Of a stretch of DNA of 64,000 nt, positions 16,806 to 37,235 are shown one piece after another. A model generated the notes under the pieces. That model was not told the origin of the DNA. It was given only the letters and a program-made list of their open reading frames with translations, and ran no database searches. The first letter of the stretch is position 1. The number at the start of each line of letters is the position of its first letter. A program made the position numbers and the translations under genes. Origin of the DNA: Ostreococcus lucimarinus (taxonomy: Eukaryota); assembly GCA_000092065.1 (NCBI GenBank), contig CP000581.1; one strand, written 5' to 3'.

Positions 16806-17894
16806 TCATCTAAAGGATTCTAGGACGCCGGCGCGGACGATTTTTGCCTCGCCCGTGGGCTCGCCGTCGGAAGAGGCCAACTTGTTGATCGCCCAAGCGT
16901 GCTCCATGCCGTCGACGACTTCGCCAAAGATGACGTACGAGCCATCTAAATGCGGCGCTGGGGCCATGACGATACTAAAGTGCCCTGTGTTGGTGTTTGG
17001 TCCGGCGTTGGCGACGCTTAGCAAACCAGGCCGGTCGTGTTTGAGTCGCAAGCCGCCGGGATCGTCGTCGAACGCTTTTCCCGGATTCACAGCACTTCCC
17101 GAGGCGGTGTGCGACCCTGTCTGGTCAATGAATCGGTCGAGAATTCTATAAAACTTCGAACCGACCCATGTATACTCTTCCGAAGGTTCGCCCACGCACA
17201 TTCGTCGGAAATTTTCCGCCGCGAGCGGGCTCGTGTCGGCGTACAATACAAATTCGATGCGCTCCGCGTCAGCGCCGTCGATGGAGACGTCGAGGTACAC
17301 GCGATGATTCCCTTTGGCGTGGCGTCTTTTAGTCTTCGCTCTTTCTTCTGCGTTGACTTCTTCCTCCGCTTTTTCCGCTTCTTCCGATGAAAACAACGCC
17401 CCGCTCGTCCATCGAGAGTCACCGCCTCGTCGTTCCGCGGCAAACAGTGCCCGCGCCGCGTTCTTCGCGTCGTACTTCAACCAACACTCCCCGCGCTTTC
17501 TATCACCTCCGCACCCCCCTTCGTCGCCGCACCAGACCCATACGTTACATTTTCTCGCGCTCTCTTCGCACGCTCGGCAGCACGCCTCGGCGCTCGACGT
17601 CTTGAAATCGCTGCCCCAGCGCACGACGCCGCCGTCGAGCTCAACGCGAGCCCCGACGTCCGCACCGCACGTTCCGGTCATCGATGATCGTCGTGAATCG
17701 ATCGCGCGCACGACATCGACGTCATCGACGCCATTTACGTCGCTCACGAACGCGCGCGAGTGCGACGTGATTGGATTGTTCACGATGACGTAAAACGCGA
17801 GCGCAACGGCGGCGGCCACGGAGTAACGCACCGTACGCAGAAGCGCTCGAGCGTCGACATTTCGTCTGTACTGCCCGCCACGCGCGAGAGCCAT
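16806..17894 (-). CDS. Membrane-anchored cyclophilin-type peptidyl-prolyl isomerase with an N-terminal PAN/Apple-like Cys-rich domain
   Basis: N-terminal signal anchor (YSVAAAVALAFYVIVNN). PAN-like Cys pattern FKTSSAEACCRACEESARKCNVWVWCGD...GECWLKY. C-terminal cyclophilin domain VYLDVSIDGADAERIEFVLYADTSPLAAENFRRMC...FYRILDRFIDQTG...GHFSIVMAPAPHLDGSYVIFGEVVDGMEHAWAI. Confidence 0.75.
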   Translation of the reverse strand: MALARGGQYRRNVDARALLRTVRYSVAAAVALAFYVIVNNPITSHSRAFVSDVNGVDDVDVVRAIDSRRSSMTGTCGADVGARVELDGGVVRWGSDFKTSSAEACCRACEESARKCNVWVWCGDEGGCGGDRKRGECWLKYDAKNAARALFAAERRGGDSRWTSGALFSSEEAEKAEEEVNAEERAKTKRRHAKGNHRVYLDVSIDGADAERIEFVLYADTSPLAAENFRRMCVGEPSEEYTWVGSKFYRILDRFIDQTGSHTASGSAVNPGKAFDDDPGGLRLKHDRPGLLSVANAGPNTNTGHFSIVMAPAPHLDGSYVIFGEVVDGMEHAWAINKLASSDGEPTGEAKIVRAGVLESFR

Positions 17895-29432: not shown

Positions 29433-29591
29433 CGGCCAAGGCCTCGACGAGGATCTTATCGTTCGACGTGAGCTTGCTCGACGCCTTGATGACGGACGTC
29501 GTCGGCGTCGGCGTCGACATCGCGAGAAGAGCGTGGAGAAGTGCGGCGCGGCGCGACGCGACGGGCGACGCGGAGGAAGTCGACTCGTGGA

Positions 29592-29766
29592 ATATTATAT
29601 TGAAAAGCTTACTTGAGGAGGAGTTCGGCGCATTGCACGGCGTTTAAGGCGGCGCCCTTCTTGATTTGGTCACCACACACGAACAAATCCAAGCCCTTGT
29701 TGTTGGGCTGGGAGATGTCTTGACGGATGCGACCGACGTAGACGTCGTCGTTATCCGTGGCGTCGA
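29592..29766. repeat. Repeat A: a 175-bp, 100% identical duplicate of the ASADH 3' coding end plus its downstream 32 bp (original at 36001..36175)
   Basis: Compared base by base: atattatattgaaaagcttacttgaggaggagttcggcgcattgcacggcgtttaaggcggcgcccttcttgatttggtcacc...ccgtggcgtcgag is identical at both places. The minus-strand ORF 29609..29839 ends with the same 47 aa as ASADH ([51 protein letters not shown]). Confidence 0.9.
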
Positions 29767-29791
29767 GACACGCCGTAACGCGTCTGCGCGC

Positions 29792-30027
29792 GATCGTCTC
29801 TCTCGTCAGTCTCCCGCGTCGCGTCGTCCTCGCGCGCACGCACCGGCACCTCGCGACGACTCTCGCGTCGGTCGTCGACCGTCAACGCGCCGAGACGCGC
29901 GCGCGCGCCCACCGTCTCGCGCGAGGACGACGACGGTGAAGACGACGCATCGTCTCGCGACGCGTCGGCTCGCGACGCGTCGGCTCGCGACGAGCGCGCC
30001 TCCACGCGCGCGCGAGGGCGCGCGTCC
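29792..30027. repeat. Repeat B copy 1 (about 235 bp; second copy at 34715..34949, about 95% identity, same orientation)
   Basis: atcgtctctctcgtcagtctcccgcgtcgcgtcgtc...gaggacgacgacggtgaagacgacgcatcgtctcgcgacgc...gagggcgcgcgtcc is present on both flanks of the peroxidase-PAN gene, with a few substitutions and one 15-nt unit variation. Confidence 0.85.
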
Positions 30028-30271
30028 ACGAGCTTGTCGCGCCGGGACGCCCGGCGCGCATGCCCCCAGCGCTTGTGCGTGAGACGCCCGCGCGCGTCAT
30101 CAATCAGTTCGCAGCATGGGGAATCCCCATGCCCGAAGAGCGACGCGACGCGGGCGACGAACACTGACGCGCGCGACCAAGACTCGTGCCCGGGTGGGCA
30201 CCTGCCGTTTTTTGTTTTTTTGTTTTTTGTCTATCTACTGTAAAGAGAATGTTAAATATGTAACATCGTGT

Positions 30272-30390
30272 GGGTCCGCTTTAAGTAGTTTAGGTCCGCT
30301 TTAGTACCTAGTAGTGTTTGGATCCGTTATAGTGCTATCTTGGGTCCGCCCTCAGTGGTCGTCCCGACCGACCGACCGACCGACCGATCG
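30272..30390. promoter_or_regulatory. Promoter-proximal degenerate approximately 20-bp tandem repeats (GGTCCGCTTTAGTA-like, 4 copies) followed by a (GACC)6 microsatellite, preceded by a T-rich tract (30206..30232)
   Basis: gggtccgctttaagtag / ttaggtccgctttagtac / ttggatccgttatagtg / ttgggtccgccctcagtgg, then cccgaccgaccgaccgaccgaccgatcgac. They end about 30 bp before the ATG at 30420. This is the only AT-rich upstream stretch in the window. Confidence 0.5.
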
Positions 30391-30419
30391 ACATTCTGGC
30401 GCGCGCGCGTCGCCCCGCG

Positions 30420-33400
30420 ATGGACGAATCGACGCCGTTGATCGGGCGGCGACGGGAAGGGAGACGCGGCGCGCGCGGCGCGCTCGTCGTCGGCGCGCTC
30501 GCGTGCGCGTGCGGAACGCTCGTGGCGTTGGCGAATTGCCCGCACCTGGTGTCGACACTCTCACGGGCGATTGGTGTTGGAGACGCGGACGGCGCGGGTG
30601 CGCGCGGGGTGAACGCGGTCTTCGCGCGCCTCGGTGCGGTGTGGGGACGCGATGATTCTGATTACGTGTACACGTCGCTCGAACGTGATTTACTGCGCCC
30701 TCACGAAGACGACGATGAAATCGAAGACGAAATCGACGAAATTGACGCCGACGCGAAGGACGGAAAGGTTGCCGAACACACTTCGACAGACCAACTGCAC
30801 GGTCGAGGAAACGAAGGCTTGGCAAAGGTCGCAACTCTGGGCGAGCCCGCACTTCCGACCGATTTGCCGCCGTCACGCGCGTTGGCGACGCTCGACGAGA
30901 TTGAAGCTGTTTTACTGGGCAACTGGCGAAAGTGGACGCGCTTGGACGTCGTGCGCGGACGCGCTGAACTGGAAACCGTGCGAGATAAACTCGCTGCTCT
31001 CGTTGGTGATGACGTGAATGAAACAACTGTCGCCAACTCTGCCGCAGAGGTGACAAACGAGACGTCGTTTATTTCTTGCAAGGCTGAACAACTCGTACGT
31101 GAAATCCTGAGTGAGTACGGCGGCGCACCCAAACTTCTACTCCCAAAATTGTTGCGCTTCATTTTCCACGACGCGGTTGACGAGAACAACTTATTAATCC
31201 AAAAGGATGGAGGCTATGTACCGTTTAGGGCACCAACTGGCTCGATATACGGCGGTTTGGACCTTTGCCTTTACTCTCCCCTGACGCATGGAACGTCTGG
31301 GAAACCAGACCCTGGGCATAACAGAAATGTTCGAATGAACCGCGAGGTTATCAAATTGTGTGACGCTGTCTGTAAAGATTTGAATACTGGTTTATGTGAA
31401 CTGCAGAATGATAAACCTAAACGGTGCTATACGGACATGTTAGCGTTTAGTTCCATAATCGTTCTGGAGAAGCACTCAAAGCTTAGTGCCCCATCTTCAA
31501 TGGTTTGGGGAAGGCGAGGCGGTGAGTGTGGCAACAGCATCGTTACACCATTTACCAAAAGCAGGGAGAAGCTTGAATCCTACGTTGGAAAACCTGCGCT
31601 GAACTTTGCGCCGGCGCTTCATGCCATGGACGATCCCGGCACCTTCTCGAGAGTCTTTGCAAAACTTGGATTTACGCCTTCAGAGCACGTCGCGTTGATG
31701 GGAGCTCACAGTGTGGGTAAAATTTCACCATGCGCGAGTGGACTCAACGGTATCGAAAAAGGTAACTTTTGCCCGATGAAGAAGCGATATGATCCACCCA
31801 TCGAGATAGGGAATGAATCCCCACAGTGCCAGCCACAAAAACACGTTCAGGGCAACTGTTGGAAACCCTCTGGACCGAAGTCTTATGCCACTCCGTATTA
31901 CTACTTCTTTCGTGGTGGGAGAACAGGGTACAAGACCGGCTTCGCCGACGGTGGGGTTTGGGATCACACGCCTGATTCGCTTGACAATCAGTATTACAAG
32001 TTGATGTACGACGAAGACTATGGGGGACGCACTAAGTGTTGCGGGAAAAAGAAGAATGGCGGTTGCCATCGGGGTGGGCAACCAGTCGACAGGGAAACTG
32101 GGAGAAAACTCCCTTTTTCCTCATTATGCAACATAAATTGGTGCCGCTCAGACCGCAAAGGTAGGACACACATGAAGTCTACAAAAGCTTGGGTCGAACC
32201 CAGACATTCGCTCTTAAAATTGCCCTACTTTCGCGGAACCATCGTGAAAATGATAAGACTTGCCGGTGATTGGGCTCTTCTCGGGAACAATGAAACACAA
32301 TCGATTCTGAAGCGTTATGCAGAAGATGAAAACGAATTCCATTCCAATTTTGCGGTGGCCTGGGATAAGGTGTTACGGAAGGGGTACTTCCTTGACGAGC
32401 TGAAAACGTGTTCGAACGTGTCAGGACCGAAAGATGCGCAACTTCTTACTCGCCTAAGGGAGTACCAAGCTGCACTGTCGGCCAAACGCGCCAAACGCGT
32501 GGCCAAAAATGCACGACGCGCCGGGGTCGAAGCCGAAAGTTCTGACCAAACATCGAATCTTGGAGATCAAAGTTCACACAACAAACTTGGACAACAAAGT
32601 TCAGCACAAGAAGATGCAACCACAGATAAAACACTGCAAGTTGCAACGGCAACCATGGATGATGCGAAGTACGACGACGGGCTTGACACTGCAACGAACG
32701 CATCGGATCTCGAGCAAGTTGTACCAAAGTCAATTTCAACGACCATTCAACATTGTGATAAGTTCAATGTGCTTGGTCTCGTCAAACACATCCGGTCAGA
32801 GATACAGAAGCTCCCTCGAGATACTACACCTCTTGCGATAGGGCAAGAGCTCACTGCGGCGAGAGACGTAGTCATGGGACAAAACGTACAGATGAGCGAG
32901 CCGACGCCTGCGCCTGCGCCCACACCTACGCCGACGCCTGCGCCTGCGCCTGCGCCTGCGCCTGCGCCTGCGCCTGCGCCCACACCCGCACCTTCGCCAG
33001 GAGTGGAGCAAAGCGACGAGTCCAGCAACGAAGATGGAGGTGACGCGAAAATCTACAGCTTGGAGCACGCAGGCGCACGGTGCGTAGGGCTGCCTCGTGC
33101 CAAGCGAGTGAAGCGAACGCGCAGTGTGGAGGAGTGTGCTGAGTTGGTGAAAAAACGTGGGCACCTCCACTTTGCCTTCCTCCGCAACACCGTGTGCTTG
33201 GAGCAGCCAAAACCGTGGAGCAAATGTCGTCGCATTCGCAAGGGCCGATTTGATCTTTACAAGATCAAAGCAGAGCCTGCGCCTCCTGCGCCTCCGCCTG
33301 CGCCTCCTGCGCCTCCTACGCCGTCTACGTGGTCGTCTACGTGGTCGTCTACACCTTCCACTTACAGTTACAGTGCAGCGACATGCAAGCGCGATCGTGG

Positions 33401-34619
33401 CAAGTTCGTTGATGGGAAATGCTGGCATATGGCTACGACTGACACATCTTGTGAAGAGACATGTGCTGACAAAAATCTTCAATATGATGAGGGCACGCAC
33501 CTGGGCTCGCCGAAGAACCCTGAGACCTGGGACAAGTGTGTGGCTGTCGCCCAGATGTTTAAAAAGCAGGCAAGGACGAATGGGCCAGCGATCGGCGGGG
33601 GTGGTGGCTGTGGCTGTTCAGTCTTTAAGATTCCTGTTTACGGTACGAATGATGCAGTTCGCCTGAGTGGCGCCAATACTACGAGCCCCGAGTGTTGGAA
33701 GATGGGCCCAATCCAAGCACGTCTCTGCGCATGCAAACCAGCATCAGCTGTTGGCGCAAGTTGCACCTCTTCCTCAAGCTGCTTGAACGCTTATTGTAAG
33801 TCAGGCGTTTGCACGAGTTTTTTGGCCCAGAACAGTGCATGCACCGAGCACGCTTCGTGCGTGACAGGCTATTGCTCACCAACGGAACGTAAATGCACGA
33901 CGGTGTCATGGAAGTCACAAAAAGGCGCGTATGCCAAAAAGTACTATAACGCTGGTAAAAAGAAATTCAGGGTTATGCCAAAACAGAAGAACGTACCTGA
34001 TTGGGAGGCGATGACGACGTTTCCAAAGGGTTTTTGTATCGGAAATGACAGCGCCGGTTGCTTGATAGCACGCGGTGTCAACCGCCAGAAGACGATTCAA
34101 AAAGCCAAACAGCGTTGTGCGTCGTCTGAGGAATGCGTGGCTGTTTGGTGTTGCGCAACAGGATGTCCAGCCACGACGTGTCATGCAGTCAAGACTAGAA
34201 CTCCAAATTACGCGGCGAACGATTGCCCGCTCTTTCCTGGAAGCTTCCGCGAGACCAAATACCCGGCTACGTTCTATACTAAAGACACGGAGGGCGCTCA
34301 AGTACACGAGTCACCGCGAAACATCGTGACGGAAGTGGACATTGCTGCGAGTGCCGATGAAGGGGAAAACATGTACAGTCGGATAAAAGGAGGGAAAAGA
34401 AGGAAGGTAGACGCAAAGCAATGCCCCTTACAAAAATTGAAAGCGCACACCTTGGACGAGTGCGCTGAGATGGTGAGGGAACACGGAAGCCTTCACTTTG
34501 CCTTCGGACATAAAAGGTGCTTTTTGGCCAAACAACCGTGGAGCGAATGCGAGACGAGCCATGGCAAGTATGATCTTTTTCAAATCGACGAACACGCACG
34601 CGACGACGATGAAGATTGA
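30420..34619 (+). CDS. Giant secreted/membrane-anchored plant-type (class II/III-like) heme peroxidase fused to Pro-Ala/Pro-Thr mucin-like linkers, Cys-rich modules and two PAN/Apple-like domains (1399 aa)
   Basis: N-terminal hydrophobic anchor (ALVVGALACACGTLVALANC). Peroxidase motifs: LLRFIFHDAV (distal His, R..FHD), ALMGAHSVG (proximal His), DSLDNQYYKLM (FDNxYY). (PA)n and PxxP linkers are encoded by (CCTGCG)n at 32904..32990 and again at 33275..33350. Two approximately 60-aa repeats, ...SVEECAELVKKRGHLHFAFLRNTVCLEQ... and ...TLDECAEMVREHGSLHFAFGHKRCFLAKQ..., have PAN-like Cys spacing. Additional Cys-rich (EGF/GCC-like) segments are present. Confidence 0.7.
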   Translation: MDESTPLIGRRREGRRGARGALVVGALACACGTLVALANCPHLVSTLSRAIGVGDADGAGARGVNAVFARLGAVWGRDDSDYVYTSLERDLLRPHEDDDEIEDEIDEIDADAKDGKVAEHTSTDQLHGRGNEGLAKVATLGEPALPTDLPPSRALATLDEIEAVLLGNWRKWTRLDVVRGRAELETVRDKLAALVGDDVNETTVANSAAEVTNETSFISCKAEQLVREILSEYGGAPKLLLPKLLRFIFHDAVDENNLLIQKDGGYVPFRAPTGSIYGGLDLCLYSPLTHGTSGKPDPGHNRNVRMNREVIKLCDAVCKDLNTGLCELQNDKPKRCYTDMLAFSSIIVLEKHSKLSAPSSMVWGRRGGECGNSIVTPFTKSREKLESYVGKPALNFAPALHAMDDPGTFSRVFAKLGFTPSEHVALMGAHSVGKISPCASGLNGIEKGNFCPMKKRYDPPIEIGNESPQCQPQKHVQGNCWKPSGPKSYATPYYYFFRGGRTGYKTGFADGGVWDHTPDSLDNQYYKLMYDEDYGGRTKCCGKKKNGGCHRGGQPVDRETGRKLPFSSLCNINWCRSDRKGRTHMKSTKAWVEPRHSLLKLPYFRGTIVKMIRLAGDWALLGNNETQSILKRYAEDENEFHSNFAVAWDKVLRKGYFLDELKTCSNVSGPKDAQLLTRLREYQAALSAKRAKRVAKNARRAGVEAESSDQTSNLGDQSSHNKLGQQSSAQEDATTDKTLQVATATMDDAKYDDGLDTATNASDLEQVVPKSISTTIQHCDKFNVLGLVKHIRSEIQKLPRDTTPLAIGQELTAARDVVMGQNVQMSEPTPAPAPTPTPTPAPAPAPAPAPAPAPTPAPSPGVEQSDESSNEDGGDAKIYSLEHAGARCVGLPRAKRVKRTRSVEECAELVKKRGHLHFAFLRNTVCLEQPKPWSKCRRIRKGRFDLYKIKAEPAPPAPPPAPPAPPTPSTWSSTWSSTPSTYSYSAATCKRDRGKFVDGKCWHMATTDTSCEETCADKNLQYDEGTHLGSPKNPETWDKCVAVAQMFKKQARTNGPAIGGGGGCGCSVFKIPVYGTNDAVRLSGANTTSPECWKMGPIQARLCACKPASAVGASCTSSSSCLNAYCKSGVCTSFLAQNSACTEHASCVTGYCSPTERKCTTVSWKSQKGAYAKKYYNAGKKKFRVMPKQKNVPDWEAMTTFPKGFCIGNDSAGCLIARGVNRQKTIQKAKQRCASSEECVAVWCCATGCPATTCHAVKTRTPNYAANDCPLFPGSFRETKYPATFYTKDTEGAQVHESPRNIVTEVDIAASADEGENMYSRIKGGKRRKVDAKQCPLQKLKAHTLDECAEMVREHGSLHFAFGHKRCFLAKQPWSECETSHGKYDLFQIDEHARDDDED

Positions 34620-34621
34620 GT

Positions 34622-34714
34622 CCCAAGAAATGAAATCCTTTACAAGTTTACAAGAAATGAAATCCTTTTACAACAATTTTTGATCACCATCCTTTTTAAA
34701 CAATTTTGATCACC
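34622..34714. repeat. AT-rich 3' UTR direct repeats (caagaaatgaaatcc x2; ttttgatcaccatc x2)
   Basis: Seen directly, immediately after the peroxidase-PAN stop codon. Confidence 0.6.
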
Positions 34715-34949
34715 ATCGTCTCTCTCGTCAGTCTCCCGCGTCGCGTCGTCATCGCGCGCACGCACCGGCACCTCGCGACGACTCTCGCGTCGGTCGTCGA
34801 ACGTCAACACGCCGAGACACGTGCGCGCGCCCACCGTCTCGCGCGAGGACGACGACGGTGAAGACGACGCATCGTCTCGCGACGCATCGTCTCGCGACGC
34901 GTCGGCTCGCGACGAGCGCTCCTCCACGCGCGCGCGAGGGCGCGCGTCC
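34715..34949. repeat. Repeat B copy 2
   Basis: See 29792..30027. Confidence 0.85.
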
Positions 34950-35254
34950 GCGCGTGGCGCGACCGGCGCGCGGGCGCGACCGACGGCGCGAGGCGCTGGC
35001 TATGTGTACGCACTCATAGTAGTGGTCACGATGACGTATCGTGCGCGTTCTTCACCCATCTATTTGCATTCCTCGACATCGCACTCGTAGTAGTGGTCAC
35101 GACGGCGGGAAAACCACCGTTCCTCCGCGGCTCACTGTTTGCGCATAGAGAAAAATTCCGGCGTGGTCGCCCGCGTCAGGAGGGACTCTTGGAGGTGTGT
35201 GACTCGTCGCTACATCTTAAACCTCGTGCGGAGATAGATCCCTTGCGGAGACGA

Positions 35255-35452: not shown

Positions 35453-35836
35453 ATGCCGGAACGTAACCCTGGTTTGGCTTACATGATGCACGTCCCCGGT
35501 GGCTGCATGGAGGACACCGGCGATTGCTGCTACGCGTCCTGCTGCCCGGCTTGCCACATGGGTTCGATCGCGGACAGAACGAACACGGGCAGCTTCTGCA
35601 TGACGGCCGCTATCGCGAGTTGTCTCGGCCCATTCTCGCCCCTCTACTTGAAGTGCGTCGCGAGCAAGGCTCTCGAATCCGTCGGCGTCAAACCGGTCGG
35701 ATACGTGGAATCCTGCTCCATGCCGAGTTGCGTGGCGTGCCAAGTCAGCCGCGAGATCAACGAGAGAAAGCAAATGGGCGGCAAGACCGGCGGCGCGCCC
35801 ACCGCCGCTCCGACGGCGCAAACCGTCGCGCGATGA
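35453..35836 (+). CDS. PLAC8-family (FW2.2/CNR/PCR-like) small Cys-rich membrane protein
   Basis: GDCCYASCCPACHMG...FCMTAAIASCLGPFSPLYLKC...SCSMPSCVACQVSREINERK matches the PLAC8 signature: a CCxxxCCPxC start and a C-terminal CxxCA(L/C)xQxxRE. 127 aa. Confidence 0.75.
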   Translation: MPERNPGLAYMMHVPGGCMEDTGDCCYASCCPACHMGSIADRTNTGSFCMTAAIASCLGPFSPLYLKCVASKALESVGVKPVGYVESCSMPSCVACQVSREINERKQMGGKTGGAPTAAPTAQTVAR

Positions 35837-36017
35837 TTCCAATCATCATCCACTCGCGCCTCGGCCGACGCCATCGGCCGCGCGACGCCTCTGCGTTCGT
35901 CAACGACGACACAGCACGCACGACAATTACAATAAGTTTAATATGAATGACACGCACTTACGCCGACGAGGGGAGACGATCGACGCGCGCGCGCGCGCGA
36001 ATATTATATTGAAAAGC

Positions 36018-37235
36018 TTACTTGAGGAGGAGTTCGGCGCATTGCACGGCGTTTAAGGCGGCGCCCTTCTTGATTTGGTCACCACACACGAACAAATCCA
36101 AGCCCTTGTTGTTGGGCTGGGAGATGTCTTGACGGATGCGACCGACGTAGACGTCGTCGTTATCCGTGGCGTCGAGCGGGGTGGGGAAACGGTTGGCGGC
36201 GCGATCGTCGATGATGGAAACGCCCGCGGCGGAGGACAAGATTTCTTTCGCCTTGACTTCATCGAGCGGGTTCTTCAACGTCAAGTTGATGGATTCCGCG
36301 TGCGCACGCATCACCGGCACCCGAATGCACGTGGCGGTGATGTTGACGTCTTTGAAGTCCCAAATCTTTCTCGTCTCCTTGACCATCTTCATCTCTTCCT
36401 CGTTGTAACCATTCTCCGTCATCGGGGCGTTGTGAGAGAACAAGTTGAACGCATACTGCCACTGGAAGATTTCCATCGTCTTGCACTCACCGTCGTTCAC
36501 CACTTCTCTCGTTTGTTGCTCCAACTCCTTCATCGCGAGCGCGCCGGCGCCGCTCGCCGCTTGGTACGTCGACACGACGATACGTTCGACGCCCACGGCG
36601 CGGTGAATCGGCGTCACCGCCATGAGCGCGATGATGGTGGAGCAGTTCGGGTTCGCGATGATCCCAGCCTTACCACCGAGCTTCAAGTGCGCCATGGCTT
36701 CCGGATTCACCTCCGGAATCACCAACGGCACCCCATCCGTCATGCGAAACGCGCTCGAGTTATCCACCACGAAGCACCCCTTCTCCACCGCCACCGGTCC
36801 AAACTTTTTCGAGATCGACCCCCCCGCGGAGAACAACGCGATATCTTGCCCATCGAACGAGCTCTCCGTCAGTTCCTCCACGACGTACGTCTCGCCGTCG
36901 AAATCCACCTTCGACCCCGCGCTTCGCGCGCTCGCCAGCATCTTCATCTCGCTATACGGAAAGTCCCTCTCCTTGAGCACGCGCAGGAACTCCTGTCCGA
37001 CCGCGCCCGTGATTCCCGCGATGACCACCTTCGGTCCGTCCGCCGTTCGCTTCGCCTCGACGCGCACCGCCCCTCGCGTCCCGCGCGCGCCCCGCGCGAT
37101 CCTTTTCGTCGTCGCTTTCAGCGCGTTCGCGTTCGCGATTCGCGCTCTCGCGCTCGTCGTCGCGCGCATCGTCGTCGTCCGCTCGTCCCTCGTCCCTCGT
37201 CGGCGCTCGTCGCGGCGCGTCGGCGTGTGTCGCAC
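36018..37235 (-). CDS. ASD: Aspartate-semialdehyde dehydrogenase with an N-terminal transit-like extension
   Basis: VVIAGITGAVGQEF (Rossmann fold), GIIANPNCSTIIALMAVTPIH (active-site Cys), ...YQAASGAG... and the C-terminal [19 protein letters not shown]. The first 70 aa are R/T/A-rich. Confidence 0.85.
   Translation of the reverse strand: MRHTPTRRDERRRGTRDERTTTMRATTSARARIANANALKATTKRIARGARGTRGAVRVEAKRTADGPKVVIAGITGAVGQEFLRVLKERDFPYSEMKMLASARSAGSKVDFDGETYVVEELTESSFDGQDIALFSAGGSISKKFGPVAVEKGCFVVDNSSAFRMTDGVPLVIPEVNPEAMAHLKLGGKAGIIANPNCSTIIALMAVTPIHRAVGVERIVVSTYQAASGAGALAMKELEQQTREVVNDGECKTMEIFQWQYAFNLFSHNAPMTENGYNEEEMKMVKETRKIWDFKDVNITATCIRVPVMRAHAESINLTLKNPLDEVKAKEILSSAAGVSIIDDRAANRFPTPLDATDNDDVYVGRIRQDISQPNNKGLDLFVCGDQIKKGAALNAVQCAELLLK

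Follow-up and report, generated by a model that had tools for sequence, protein, structure and literature searches.

A predicted secretory haem peroxidase with divergent PAN/Apple-fold modules and a copy-number polymorphism in a marine picoeukaryote

Introduction

Hybrid B haem peroxidases consist of a peroxidase domain and C-terminal WSC or CBM21/34 domains (PMC5571214, PMC4232752), and these enzymes have been reported to be strictly fungal and monophyletic (PMC5571214). A 64,000-nucleotide stretch of contig CP000581.1 of Ostreococcus lucimarinus (assembly GCA_000092065.1), hereafter the window, contains an open reading frame (ORF) for a multidomain protein of this general kind, namely a predicted secretory haem peroxidase with modules of the PAN/WSC fold. 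The kind is known, and the locus adds to it a module family that is invisible to current hidden Markov models (HMMs) and a resolved copy-number polymorphism. Taken as a whole, the locus is probably best explained as encoding a peroxidase that is dispensable, works in the secretory pathway or at the cell surface, and is aimed at glycan or protein ligands by its modules. Like the Hybrid B enzymes, the protein fuses a peroxidase to putative binding modules. However, its host is a marine picoeukaryote, it has no WSC or PAN HMM match, and it carries an extra cassette of 326 residues and Pro-rich hinges. Its peroxidase domain is about 150 residues larger with family-specific Cys-rich insertions, and by this description it is set apart from the fungal enzymes. 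An architecture so far described as fungal is extended in this way to marine picoeukaryotes.

The PAN/Apple superfold is represented by the HGF N domain, the plasminogen PAN domain, the apple domains of factor XI and (pre)kallikrein, the apicomplexan lectins MIC4 of Toxoplasma and SML-2 of Sarcocystis, and the MANEC and WSC domains. Leech antiplatelet protein, the WSC domain of Kremen and the WSC domains of fungal copper-radical oxidases belong here too. The modules described here differ from canonical PAN domains in holding only four Cys residues, the second helix Cys being replaced by Val. They also differ from PAN_1-4, WSC and MANEC in matching no Pfam model, and a profile comparison with PAN_4 is not significant.

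Dispensable cassettes of two to four genes with fixed borders have been documented for a Mamiellales picoalga (Bathycoccus) in Tara Oceans (PMC5128809). The segment that carries the peroxidase gene resembles them in having two called genes, in lying within a conserved, housekeeping-rich region, and in being present or absent with identical borders among metagenomes. Unlike in those cassettes, the borders are resolved here to a perfect 178-bp duplication of the 3' end of a neighbouring gene, and two-copy haplotypes arise by duplication through a nested 238-bp repeat.

Domain organization and integrity of the gene

The protein is built, in this order, of the peroxidase, a spacer, a Pro-Ala hinge, a basic PAN-fold module, a second hinge, a Cys-rich cassette and a second PAN-fold module. 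The features of the gene are as follows.

30420..34619, plus strand: complete ORF of the multidomain peroxidase, 1399 residues; single open frame, with the same protein on many independent metagenome contigs.
30471..30551, plus strand: N-terminal hydrophobic segment, residues 18-44, after an Arg-rich n-region; Kyte-Doolittle maximum 2.19.
31062..32414, plus strand: enlarged haem peroxidase domain, residues 215-665, recognized by its PF00141 match, its relatives, its invariant residues and its alignment with Leishmania peroxidase.
Key residues of the peroxidase domain: distal R246/F249/H250; proximal H430; D617; block D515/T517/D522.
32415..32894, plus strand: Cys-poor spacer, residues 666-825, with a basic Lys/Arg-rich stretch at residues 689-700 and a conserved element of ~45 residues.
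32895..32996, plus strand: Pro-Ala/Pro-Thr hinge 1, residues 826-859, encoded by a CCTGCG hexamer array; length-polymorphic.
33045..33275, plus strand: PAN/Apple-fold module 1, residues 876-952; 4 Cys, net charge +14, isoelectric point (pI) 10.4.
33276..33371, plus strand: Pro-rich hinge 2, residues 953-984; PAPP repeats followed by STWSSTWSST.
33372..34349, plus strand: Cys-rich cassette, residues 985-1310 (326 residues), 27 Cys; with module 2 it stands alone as a secreted protein in relatives.
34350..34595, plus strand: PAN/Apple-fold module 2, residues 1311-1392.

The initial annotation, made from the sequence alone, proves largely correct in what it observed and partly correct in how it interpreted the observation. 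The uninterrupted ORF that it described is borne out: 4.2 kb of the plus strand are open, the preceding in-frame stop lies at ~30333, and there is no ATG, GTG or TTG between this stop and the ATG of the ORF. Many independent metagenome contigs carry an identical or near-identical ORF, and all indels among them are in frame. The nearest relative (P0001) is 94% identical in protein and 96% in DNA sequence, is collinear over its full length with in-frame indels of 2, 9 and 14 residues, and has a longer called N-terminus. Because the frame is open over 4.2 kb, the 96%-identical orthologue differs by in-frame indels only, and the identical protein recurs on many independent contigs, the ORF is one real intron-less gene.

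The cassette and a module occur as an independent secreted protein in other taxa, and the cassette is missing from most peroxidases of the family. Both would fit a read-through of two genes, one for the peroxidase and the other for a separately expressed Cys-rich cassette protein. However, the 4.2 kb contain no stop codon, frame shift or internal signal peptide, and all wild alleles, like the 94%-identical orthologue, keep the full-length ORF. In addition, a single 2.2-kb contig (P0049) joins module 1, linker, cassette and module 2, and a cluster of more distant relatives (P0002) has the peroxidase and a module in a single ORF. A chimera is thus extremely improbable.

The same fusion is found elsewhere, in full in P0001 and in reduced form in the P0002-type cluster, which comprises 106 sequences from Tara Oceans scaffolds. 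P0002 matches the query at 45% identity in the best local alignment, over 53% of the length of the query; in the family alignment, its identity to the peroxidase domain is 62%. Proteins of this cluster keep the peroxidase and one module, have a different middle region and end in a C-terminal transmembrane segment. The remaining 45 family peroxidases are without the 4-Cys module. Their tails are small and disulfide-rich and include a Pfam-significant ShK domain (P0004) and a Pfam-significant PAN_2 domain (P0035). The grafting of binding modules onto this peroxidase family is thus a recurrent theme, in parallel to the fungal Hybrid B enzymes.

Peroxidase domain

Homology was searched domain by domain, as a whole-protein search was swamped by low-complexity words and gave 2 matches. 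With the peroxidase domain alone (453 residues) as query, 45 relatives of 29-48% identity are found, and in most of them the match extends over more than 90% of the domain; the marine protist transcriptome collections MMETSP and EukProt are among the named sources. PF00141 matches residues 240-636 with 45 bits against a gathering cutoff of 27, spanning profile positions 15-237 of 237, and scores of the family relatives range from 44 to 73 bits. The three motifs that the initial annotation had taken for an intact haem peroxidase are all present, namely RFIFHD (residues 246-251), GAHSVG (residues 428-433) and DNQYY (residues 522-526). R246, F249, H250, D251, H430, D515, T517, D522 and D617 are invariant in a 28-member family alignment. 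A profile of the family aligns in four blocks with solved peroxidases, Leishmania peroxidase at E=7e-23 and CcP at ~1e-17. In this alignment, the distal R-x-x-F-H, the proximal GAH and the Asp partner are matched with LIRLAWH, GAHTCG and LPSD of the Leishmania enzyme (3riv). The sequence thus assigns the domain to the peroxidase-catalase superfamily, as a haem peroxidase with a catalytic apparatus that is predicted to be intact.

The class assignment of the initial annotation, class II/III-type, is not supported. The domain shares with enzymes of classes I, II and III the distal R-x-x-F-H, the proximal His with its Asp partner and the PF00141 match. Likeness to class II is confined to an 'LRxxFHDAI' block and likeness to class III to a 'TPxxFDNxYF' block. 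The distal block alone shows a weak preference for class II fungal enzymes (LRivFHDAI, E=1.5), and the latter block alone prefers class III plant enzymes at a sub-significant E~0.08. In contrast, the best 60 PDB matches of the whole-domain profile are all class I (Leishmania peroxidase/APX, CcP), which speaks against membership of class II or III.

The hallmark of class III is a conserved Cys framework that includes FHDCFxxGCD following the distal His. This motif is missing on direct reading of the domain, where the sequence is RFIFHDAVDENN with no Cys after HD, and this speaks against class III as well. Class III enzymes are stated in the literature to be absent from chlorophytes. Because the whole-domain profile is nearest to class I, only short blocks are class II/III-like and the class III Cys motif is missing, the family is placed outside classes II and III, apparently as an unclassified lineage within the superfamily. 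Among published labels, 'other non-animal peroxidases', a lineage named in 10.1101/851881, is the best description that sequence comparison offers.

The domain also differs from all three classes in its large insertions, which make it ~150 residues longer than usual and hold motifs invariant among the 28 members, such as CCG and WCRSDRKGRTHMKS. One insertion, at ~32020-32250 (residues ~535-610), has the pattern CCG...C...WCRSDRKGRTHMKS, which is invariant or nearly so in relatives of 30-45% identity and is not present in classical peroxidases. Class II and III peroxidases contain two structural Ca2+ sites, a distal one with D...GG-x-D-x-S and a proximal one with S/T after the His and D-x-T-x-x-D. 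By these general motifs, D251, G278/G279/D281, S431, D515, T517 and D522 are candidate Ca2+ ligands, and they are conserved.

The great divergence of the domain, which has ~150 additional residues and reaches just 45 bits with PF00141, and the relatively frequent amino-acid-changing differences between orthologues would be compatible with a domain that serves as a scaffold in a protein that is purely an adhesin or receptor. However, the catalytic and haem-ligating residues are all invariant among relatives at 30-45% identity, which is not expected of a pseudo-enzyme. A non-catalytic role is therefore quite unlikely, and an active peroxidase is the reading followed below.

PAN/Apple-fold modules

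Modules 1 (residues ~876-952) and 2 (residues ~1311-1392) are 4-Cys paralogues of each other (39% identical, E=4e-13). Their Cys residues C13, C31, C51 and C61 are invariant or nearly so, and one of them lies in the helix, as in PAN domains. AlphaFold2 predicts a PAN fold with a predicted local distance difference test (pLDDT) score of 90.5, in which an alpha-helix is packed on an antiparallel sheet of ~5 strands within ~70-80 residues. In the BFVD library of viral structures, the top matches are viral PAN proteins. The two PAN/Apple domains claimed initially are thus supported as to the fold, since confident models show the PAN/Apple superfold, and not as to the sequence family, as no PAN HMM matches at E≤10. 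The models suggest that the modules form a divergent PAN-superfold family that is missed by current HMMs.

An exhaustive profile search of 1.84 billion representatives finds 26 module proteins at E≤1e-3, and the module profile finds nothing relevant among PDB sequences. Pfam searches of the multi-copy module proteins give chance-level matches only. Module 1 and its nearest relatives are strongly basic (net +14, pI 10.4 for module 1), whereas the multi-copy versions of other protists are acidic. Tandem repeats of the 4-Cys module apparently constitute an undescribed family that is unseen by Pfam. Proteins of other protists (P0053-P0056, P0062-P0073) have 2-9 acidic tandem copies and, as judged by eye, a C-terminal hydrophobic, transmembrane-like stretch. 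In one such protein (P0071), the 4-Cys modules are preceded by a ricin-B lectin domain at the N-terminus.

A cyclophilin ORF at 16806-17894 on the minus strand of the window has a Pro_isomerase domain, an N-terminal hydrophobic segment and a genuine PAN_4 domain (43 bits against a cutoff of 27), as the initial annotation had surmised. However, its suggestion of a lineage-specific family of PAN-tethered surface enzymes goes too far, because neither direct sequence comparison nor hhalign detects a sequence relationship between this PAN_4 domain and the modules of the peroxidase. On sequence grounds, the two proteins appear to share a common fold theme rather than to belong to one family. The exact cyclophilin protein recurs in a public sequencing run (L002).

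Cys-rich cassette

The 56 Cys residues of the protein are concentrated in the peroxidase domain and in residues 985-1392, in agreement with the Cys-rich modules proposed earlier; the tail after the peroxidase domain measures ~735 residues rather than the 900 initially given. Stand-alone proteins consisting of the cassette and module 2 (P0059, P0074, P0075 and P0077-79) begin with a signal peptide of their own, and their N-terminal region is acidic. Searches of Pfam with the whole protein and five fragments at E≤10 return the peroxidase match only, with no PAN, EGF or WSC domain. EGF-like modules, which had also been considered, find no support, as EGF-family HMMs match neither the ORF nor its fragments, the Cys-rich one included, at this threshold. 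Comparison of the cassette sub-regions with the module family or PAN_4 by hhalign gives a marginal match of 25 columns only.

Spacer and Pro-rich hinges

The two Pro-rich linkers of the initial annotation are present, but hexamer coding applies to the first alone, as hinge 2 is encoded by a different repeat of 9/21 nt. The array of hinge 1 is not the perfect (CCTGCG)14 reported earlier: its perfect run at 32937-32978 holds 7 copies, another 2 lie at 32907-32918, and Tandem Repeats Finder counts 12.7 copies at 88% match. The expectation that the array is hypervariable holds when wild alleles and the orthologue are compared, since perfect copies number 7, 6 or 4 per allele. Two wild alleles (L007, L012) encode a protein identical to that of the window, and in two others (L009, L010) the sole difference is one CCTGCG unit (6 instead of 7). 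A further allele (L013) has three substitutions and a hinge shorter by 2 residues, its perfect run being 6 units. Hinge 1 differs from that of the orthologue by exactly 14 residues, or 7 hexamer units. The hexamer array is the most mutable site of the gene.

Hinges of the Pro-Ala/Pro-Thr type resemble the arabinogalactan-type glycomodules of plants. The spacer ahead of hinge 1 (residues 666-825) contains Lys/Arg-rich dibasic clusters. At ~32730-32870 (residues ~772-818), it includes an element of ~45 residues, ISTxxxxxDKFxVxGxVKxIRS...GxELxxxRDxV, that is kept in the 45%-identical P0002; the rest of the spacer is of low complexity.

Predicted secretory route and membrane topology

The protein has one strongly hydrophobic segment, at residues ~18-44, preceded by an n-region with five Arg. 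The family relatives carry classical signal peptides, and P0002 has the C-terminal transmembrane segment mentioned above. Because of the single N-terminal hydrophobic segment after an Arg-rich n-region, the signal peptides of the relatives, the 56 Cys residues and the 8 N-X-S/T sequons in the 1399 residues, a secretory route is predicted. The segment is probably a type II signal anchor and possibly a cleaved signal peptide; in either case the protein would enter the secretory pathway, and its catalytic domain and modules would all be exposed to the lumen or to the outside of the cell. Peroxidase and tail are placed outside the cytosol on account of the topology signals, the content of Cys and sequons, and the extracellular character of PAN/WSC-fold modules. 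Either the uncleaved N-terminal segment would anchor the protein, or the protein would be secreted and held back via its modules.

A soluble enzyme, with the N-terminal segment cleaved and the protein kept near the cell only by binding of its PAN modules or released to seawater, is a minority possibility that deserves some weight. A candidate A-x-A-like cleavage site (VALA/NC; A-L-A/N, residues 36-39) follows the hydrophobic core, and short classical signal peptides are found in most family relatives and at the beginning of the stand-alone cassette proteins. Furthermore, the use of a separate C-terminal transmembrane segment by P0002 implies that its N-terminus is cleaved. However, the n-region is long with five Arg and the hydrophobic core comprises ~19-23 residues, which favours the type II signal anchor.

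Type II anchors with short cytosolic tails are characteristic of enzymes that reside in the Golgi. The protein could accordingly work in the endoplasmic reticulum, Golgi or vacuole, for example by cross-linking glycoproteins or scales during their maturation, and the sequence holds nothing that specifies the plasma membrane. However, PAN/Apple/WSC modules and Pro-rich hinges typically occur in extracellular proteins, and the multi-copy module relatives have long ectodomains ending, by eye, in a hydrophobic, transmembrane-like stretch. The gene is also dispensable in wild populations, which is less expected for a core biosynthetic step. An endomembrane function is hence unlikely in comparison with an anchored or retained enzyme at the cell surface.

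Insertion and copy-number polymorphism

The gene lies in a 6.2-kb insertion that is bordered by two nested pairs of direct repeats.

29590..29767, no strand assigned: outer direct repeat, copy 1 (178 bp), 100% identical to 35999-36176; left edge of the 6.2-kb insertion.
29793..30030, no strand assigned: inner 238-bp direct repeat, upstream copy, 96% identical to 34715-34952 at a spacing of 4922 bp.
34715..34952, no strand assigned: inner 238-bp direct repeat, downstream copy; substrate for unequal crossing-over.
35453..35836, plus strand: small Cys-rich ORF of 127 residues, co-inserted with the peroxidase gene and missing from the empty haplotypes too.
35999..36176, no strand assigned: second copy of the outer direct repeat, the true 3' end of the gene for aspartate-semialdehyde dehydrogenase, which lies on the minus strand at 36018-37235.

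The outer repeat corresponds to the end of the aspartate-semialdehyde dehydrogenase gene, namely its last 52 codons, the stop codon and 19 bp, and the C-terminal peptide encoded by the two copies is the same. A duplicated gene fragment is thus found at 29590, which indicates that the filled state is derived. Haplotype contigs from marine metagenomes were chosen by an identical neighbouring mitochondrial-carrier protein. The segment with the gene is present in L007, L009, L010, L012 and L013. In L008 and L011, 6231 bp are missing exactly at one copy of the 178-bp repeat, so that a single copy remains, and the flanks are 99.4-99.9% identical. The missing 6231 bp comprise the peroxidase gene and the small PLAC8-like ORF. 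Haplotypes with and without the segment thus coexist, with identical borders, in the same species-level population.

A contig with two copies (L019/L020) is found in three samples. Its two tandem units are spaced 4922 bp apart and differ at only two bases. The 238-bp repeat between them is of the downstream type at positions 37 and 87 and of the upstream type from position 95 on. This hybrid is the product of a single crossover, between positions 87 and 95, in unequal recombination. An assembly loop was rejected as the origin of the contig, as the middle repeat is a unique recombinant sequence. The gene is accessory, being carried by a 6.2-kb insertion in a housekeeping region and present in 0, 1 or 2 copies in wild populations, and the changes in copy number arise through recombination at the flanking direct repeats.

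Homology with the contig of the 96%-identical orthologue (L003) is confined to 30388-34636, beginning 32 bp before the ATG and stopping 17 bp after the stop codon. On that contig, the gene adjoins a kinase/cNMP-binding gene and an Amo1_N gene. In a more distant relative (L004-L006), the surroundings are different again, the gene lying between COG5 and an S8 protease. The base composition of the insert gives no ground for calling it anomalous: the GC content at third codon positions (GC3) of the ORF is 0.545, below that of highly expressed neighbours but within the range of the window.

Functional implications

The reading favoured here, a dispensable secretory-pathway or surface enzyme aimed by its modules, leads to the following scheme. 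The PAN-fold modules and the cassette would bind glycan or protein ligands; for the modules this is the most likely function by analogy with the HGF N domain, MIC4, WSC domains and WSC-bearing fungal oxidases. The ligands of the basic module 1 would probably be anionic or sulfated polymers, and the Pro-rich hinges, probably O-glycosylated, would serve as extended spacers. Binding by the modules would position the peroxidase so that one-electron oxidation driven by hydrogen peroxide (H2O2) takes place locally, either on a bound partner or at the surface of the cell. Such oxidation could lead to cross-linking, radical formation or peroxide removal, and a role in the cross-linking of cell wall or scales is speculation.

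Several results weigh against this scheme. PAN, WSC and MANEC HMMs of Pfam match neither the ORF nor the isolated modules (E≤10) nor the multi-copy relatives, and hhalign of the module family with the genuine PAN_4 domain of the cyclophilin is not significant (E=0.11). The sub-regions of the cassette have no Pfam match even at E≤10, profiles of its regions A and C find nothing in the PDB, and its AlphaFold2 model is of low confidence (pLDDT 53), with no assignable fold. The N-terminal sequence fits a cleavable signal peptide, with its candidate site at residues 36-39, as well as a signal anchor. Finally, 39 codons differ from those of the 96%-identical orthologue synonymously only and 57 in the encoded amino acid, which suggests that constraint is only moderate.

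The polymorphism of 0, 1 or 2 copies together with a mutable hinge suggests a surface trait that is of use under some conditions, and not a core function. It is a good deal more doubtful that the protein is a dispensable surface device for recognition and oxidation whose presence, dosage (0, 1, 2) and hinge length are kept polymorphic by biotic selection. If this were true, the modules could, for example, dock giant viruses, grazers or bacteria, or defend against them, and the peroxidase would use ambient or self-made H2O2 to cross-link or damage the bound partner. The variation in copy number and microsatellite length would then be the footprint of an arms race on the surface of one of the most abundant groups of ocean eukaryotes, and the 4-Cys module would represent a PAN-superfold family that had gone unrecognised although it is widespread among marine protists.

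Measurements of the extracellular reactive-oxygen chemistry of phytoplankton are common, but few of the surface enzymes responsible for it are known; this gene is a candidate with a predicted intact active site and putative targeting modules. A PAN-superfold module family that HMM libraries now miss is defined at the level of predicted structure. Natural haplotypes with 0, 1 and 2 copies and base-pair breakpoints make the function approachable through association in metagenomes and metatranscriptomes and through comparison of isolates. The locus is also a clean example of the gain and amplification of a cassette in compact algal genomes, by a long flanking duplication and then by unequal crossing-over.

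Neighbouring genes and minor features

The window is a compact, intron-poor eukaryotic region of 57% GC, in which Rfam detects no RNA family. This genome architecture, the GC content and the marine metagenome sources of the contigs suggest a green picoalga of the Mamiellophyceae type. Its housekeeping genes include those for Vps8, an SMC-like protein, trehalose-P synthase/phosphatase, NOG1, a mitochondrial carrier, beta'-COP, CPSF100 and NRDE-2. The 127-residue ORF co-inserted with the peroxidase gene scores 20.6 bits with PLAC8, below the cutoff of 34.4, and its GC3 of 0.79 is the highest among the genes of the window that were checked. The upstream inner repeat contains three copies of the 15-bp unit CGACGCRTCGKCTCG; this 15-mer occurs only in the two copies of the inner repeat, at 6 exact sites against 0.43 expected. 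In L014 and L018, ~328 bp corresponding to 34688-35014, the downstream 238-bp repeat included, are swapped for ~167 bp of different sequence. Right after the stop codon and before the downstream 238-bp repeat, at 34662-34717, lies an AT-rich 26-bp tandem repeat with about 2.1 copies of ATCCTTTTAAAACAATTTTTGATCACC, which may be a 3'-end or terminator element.

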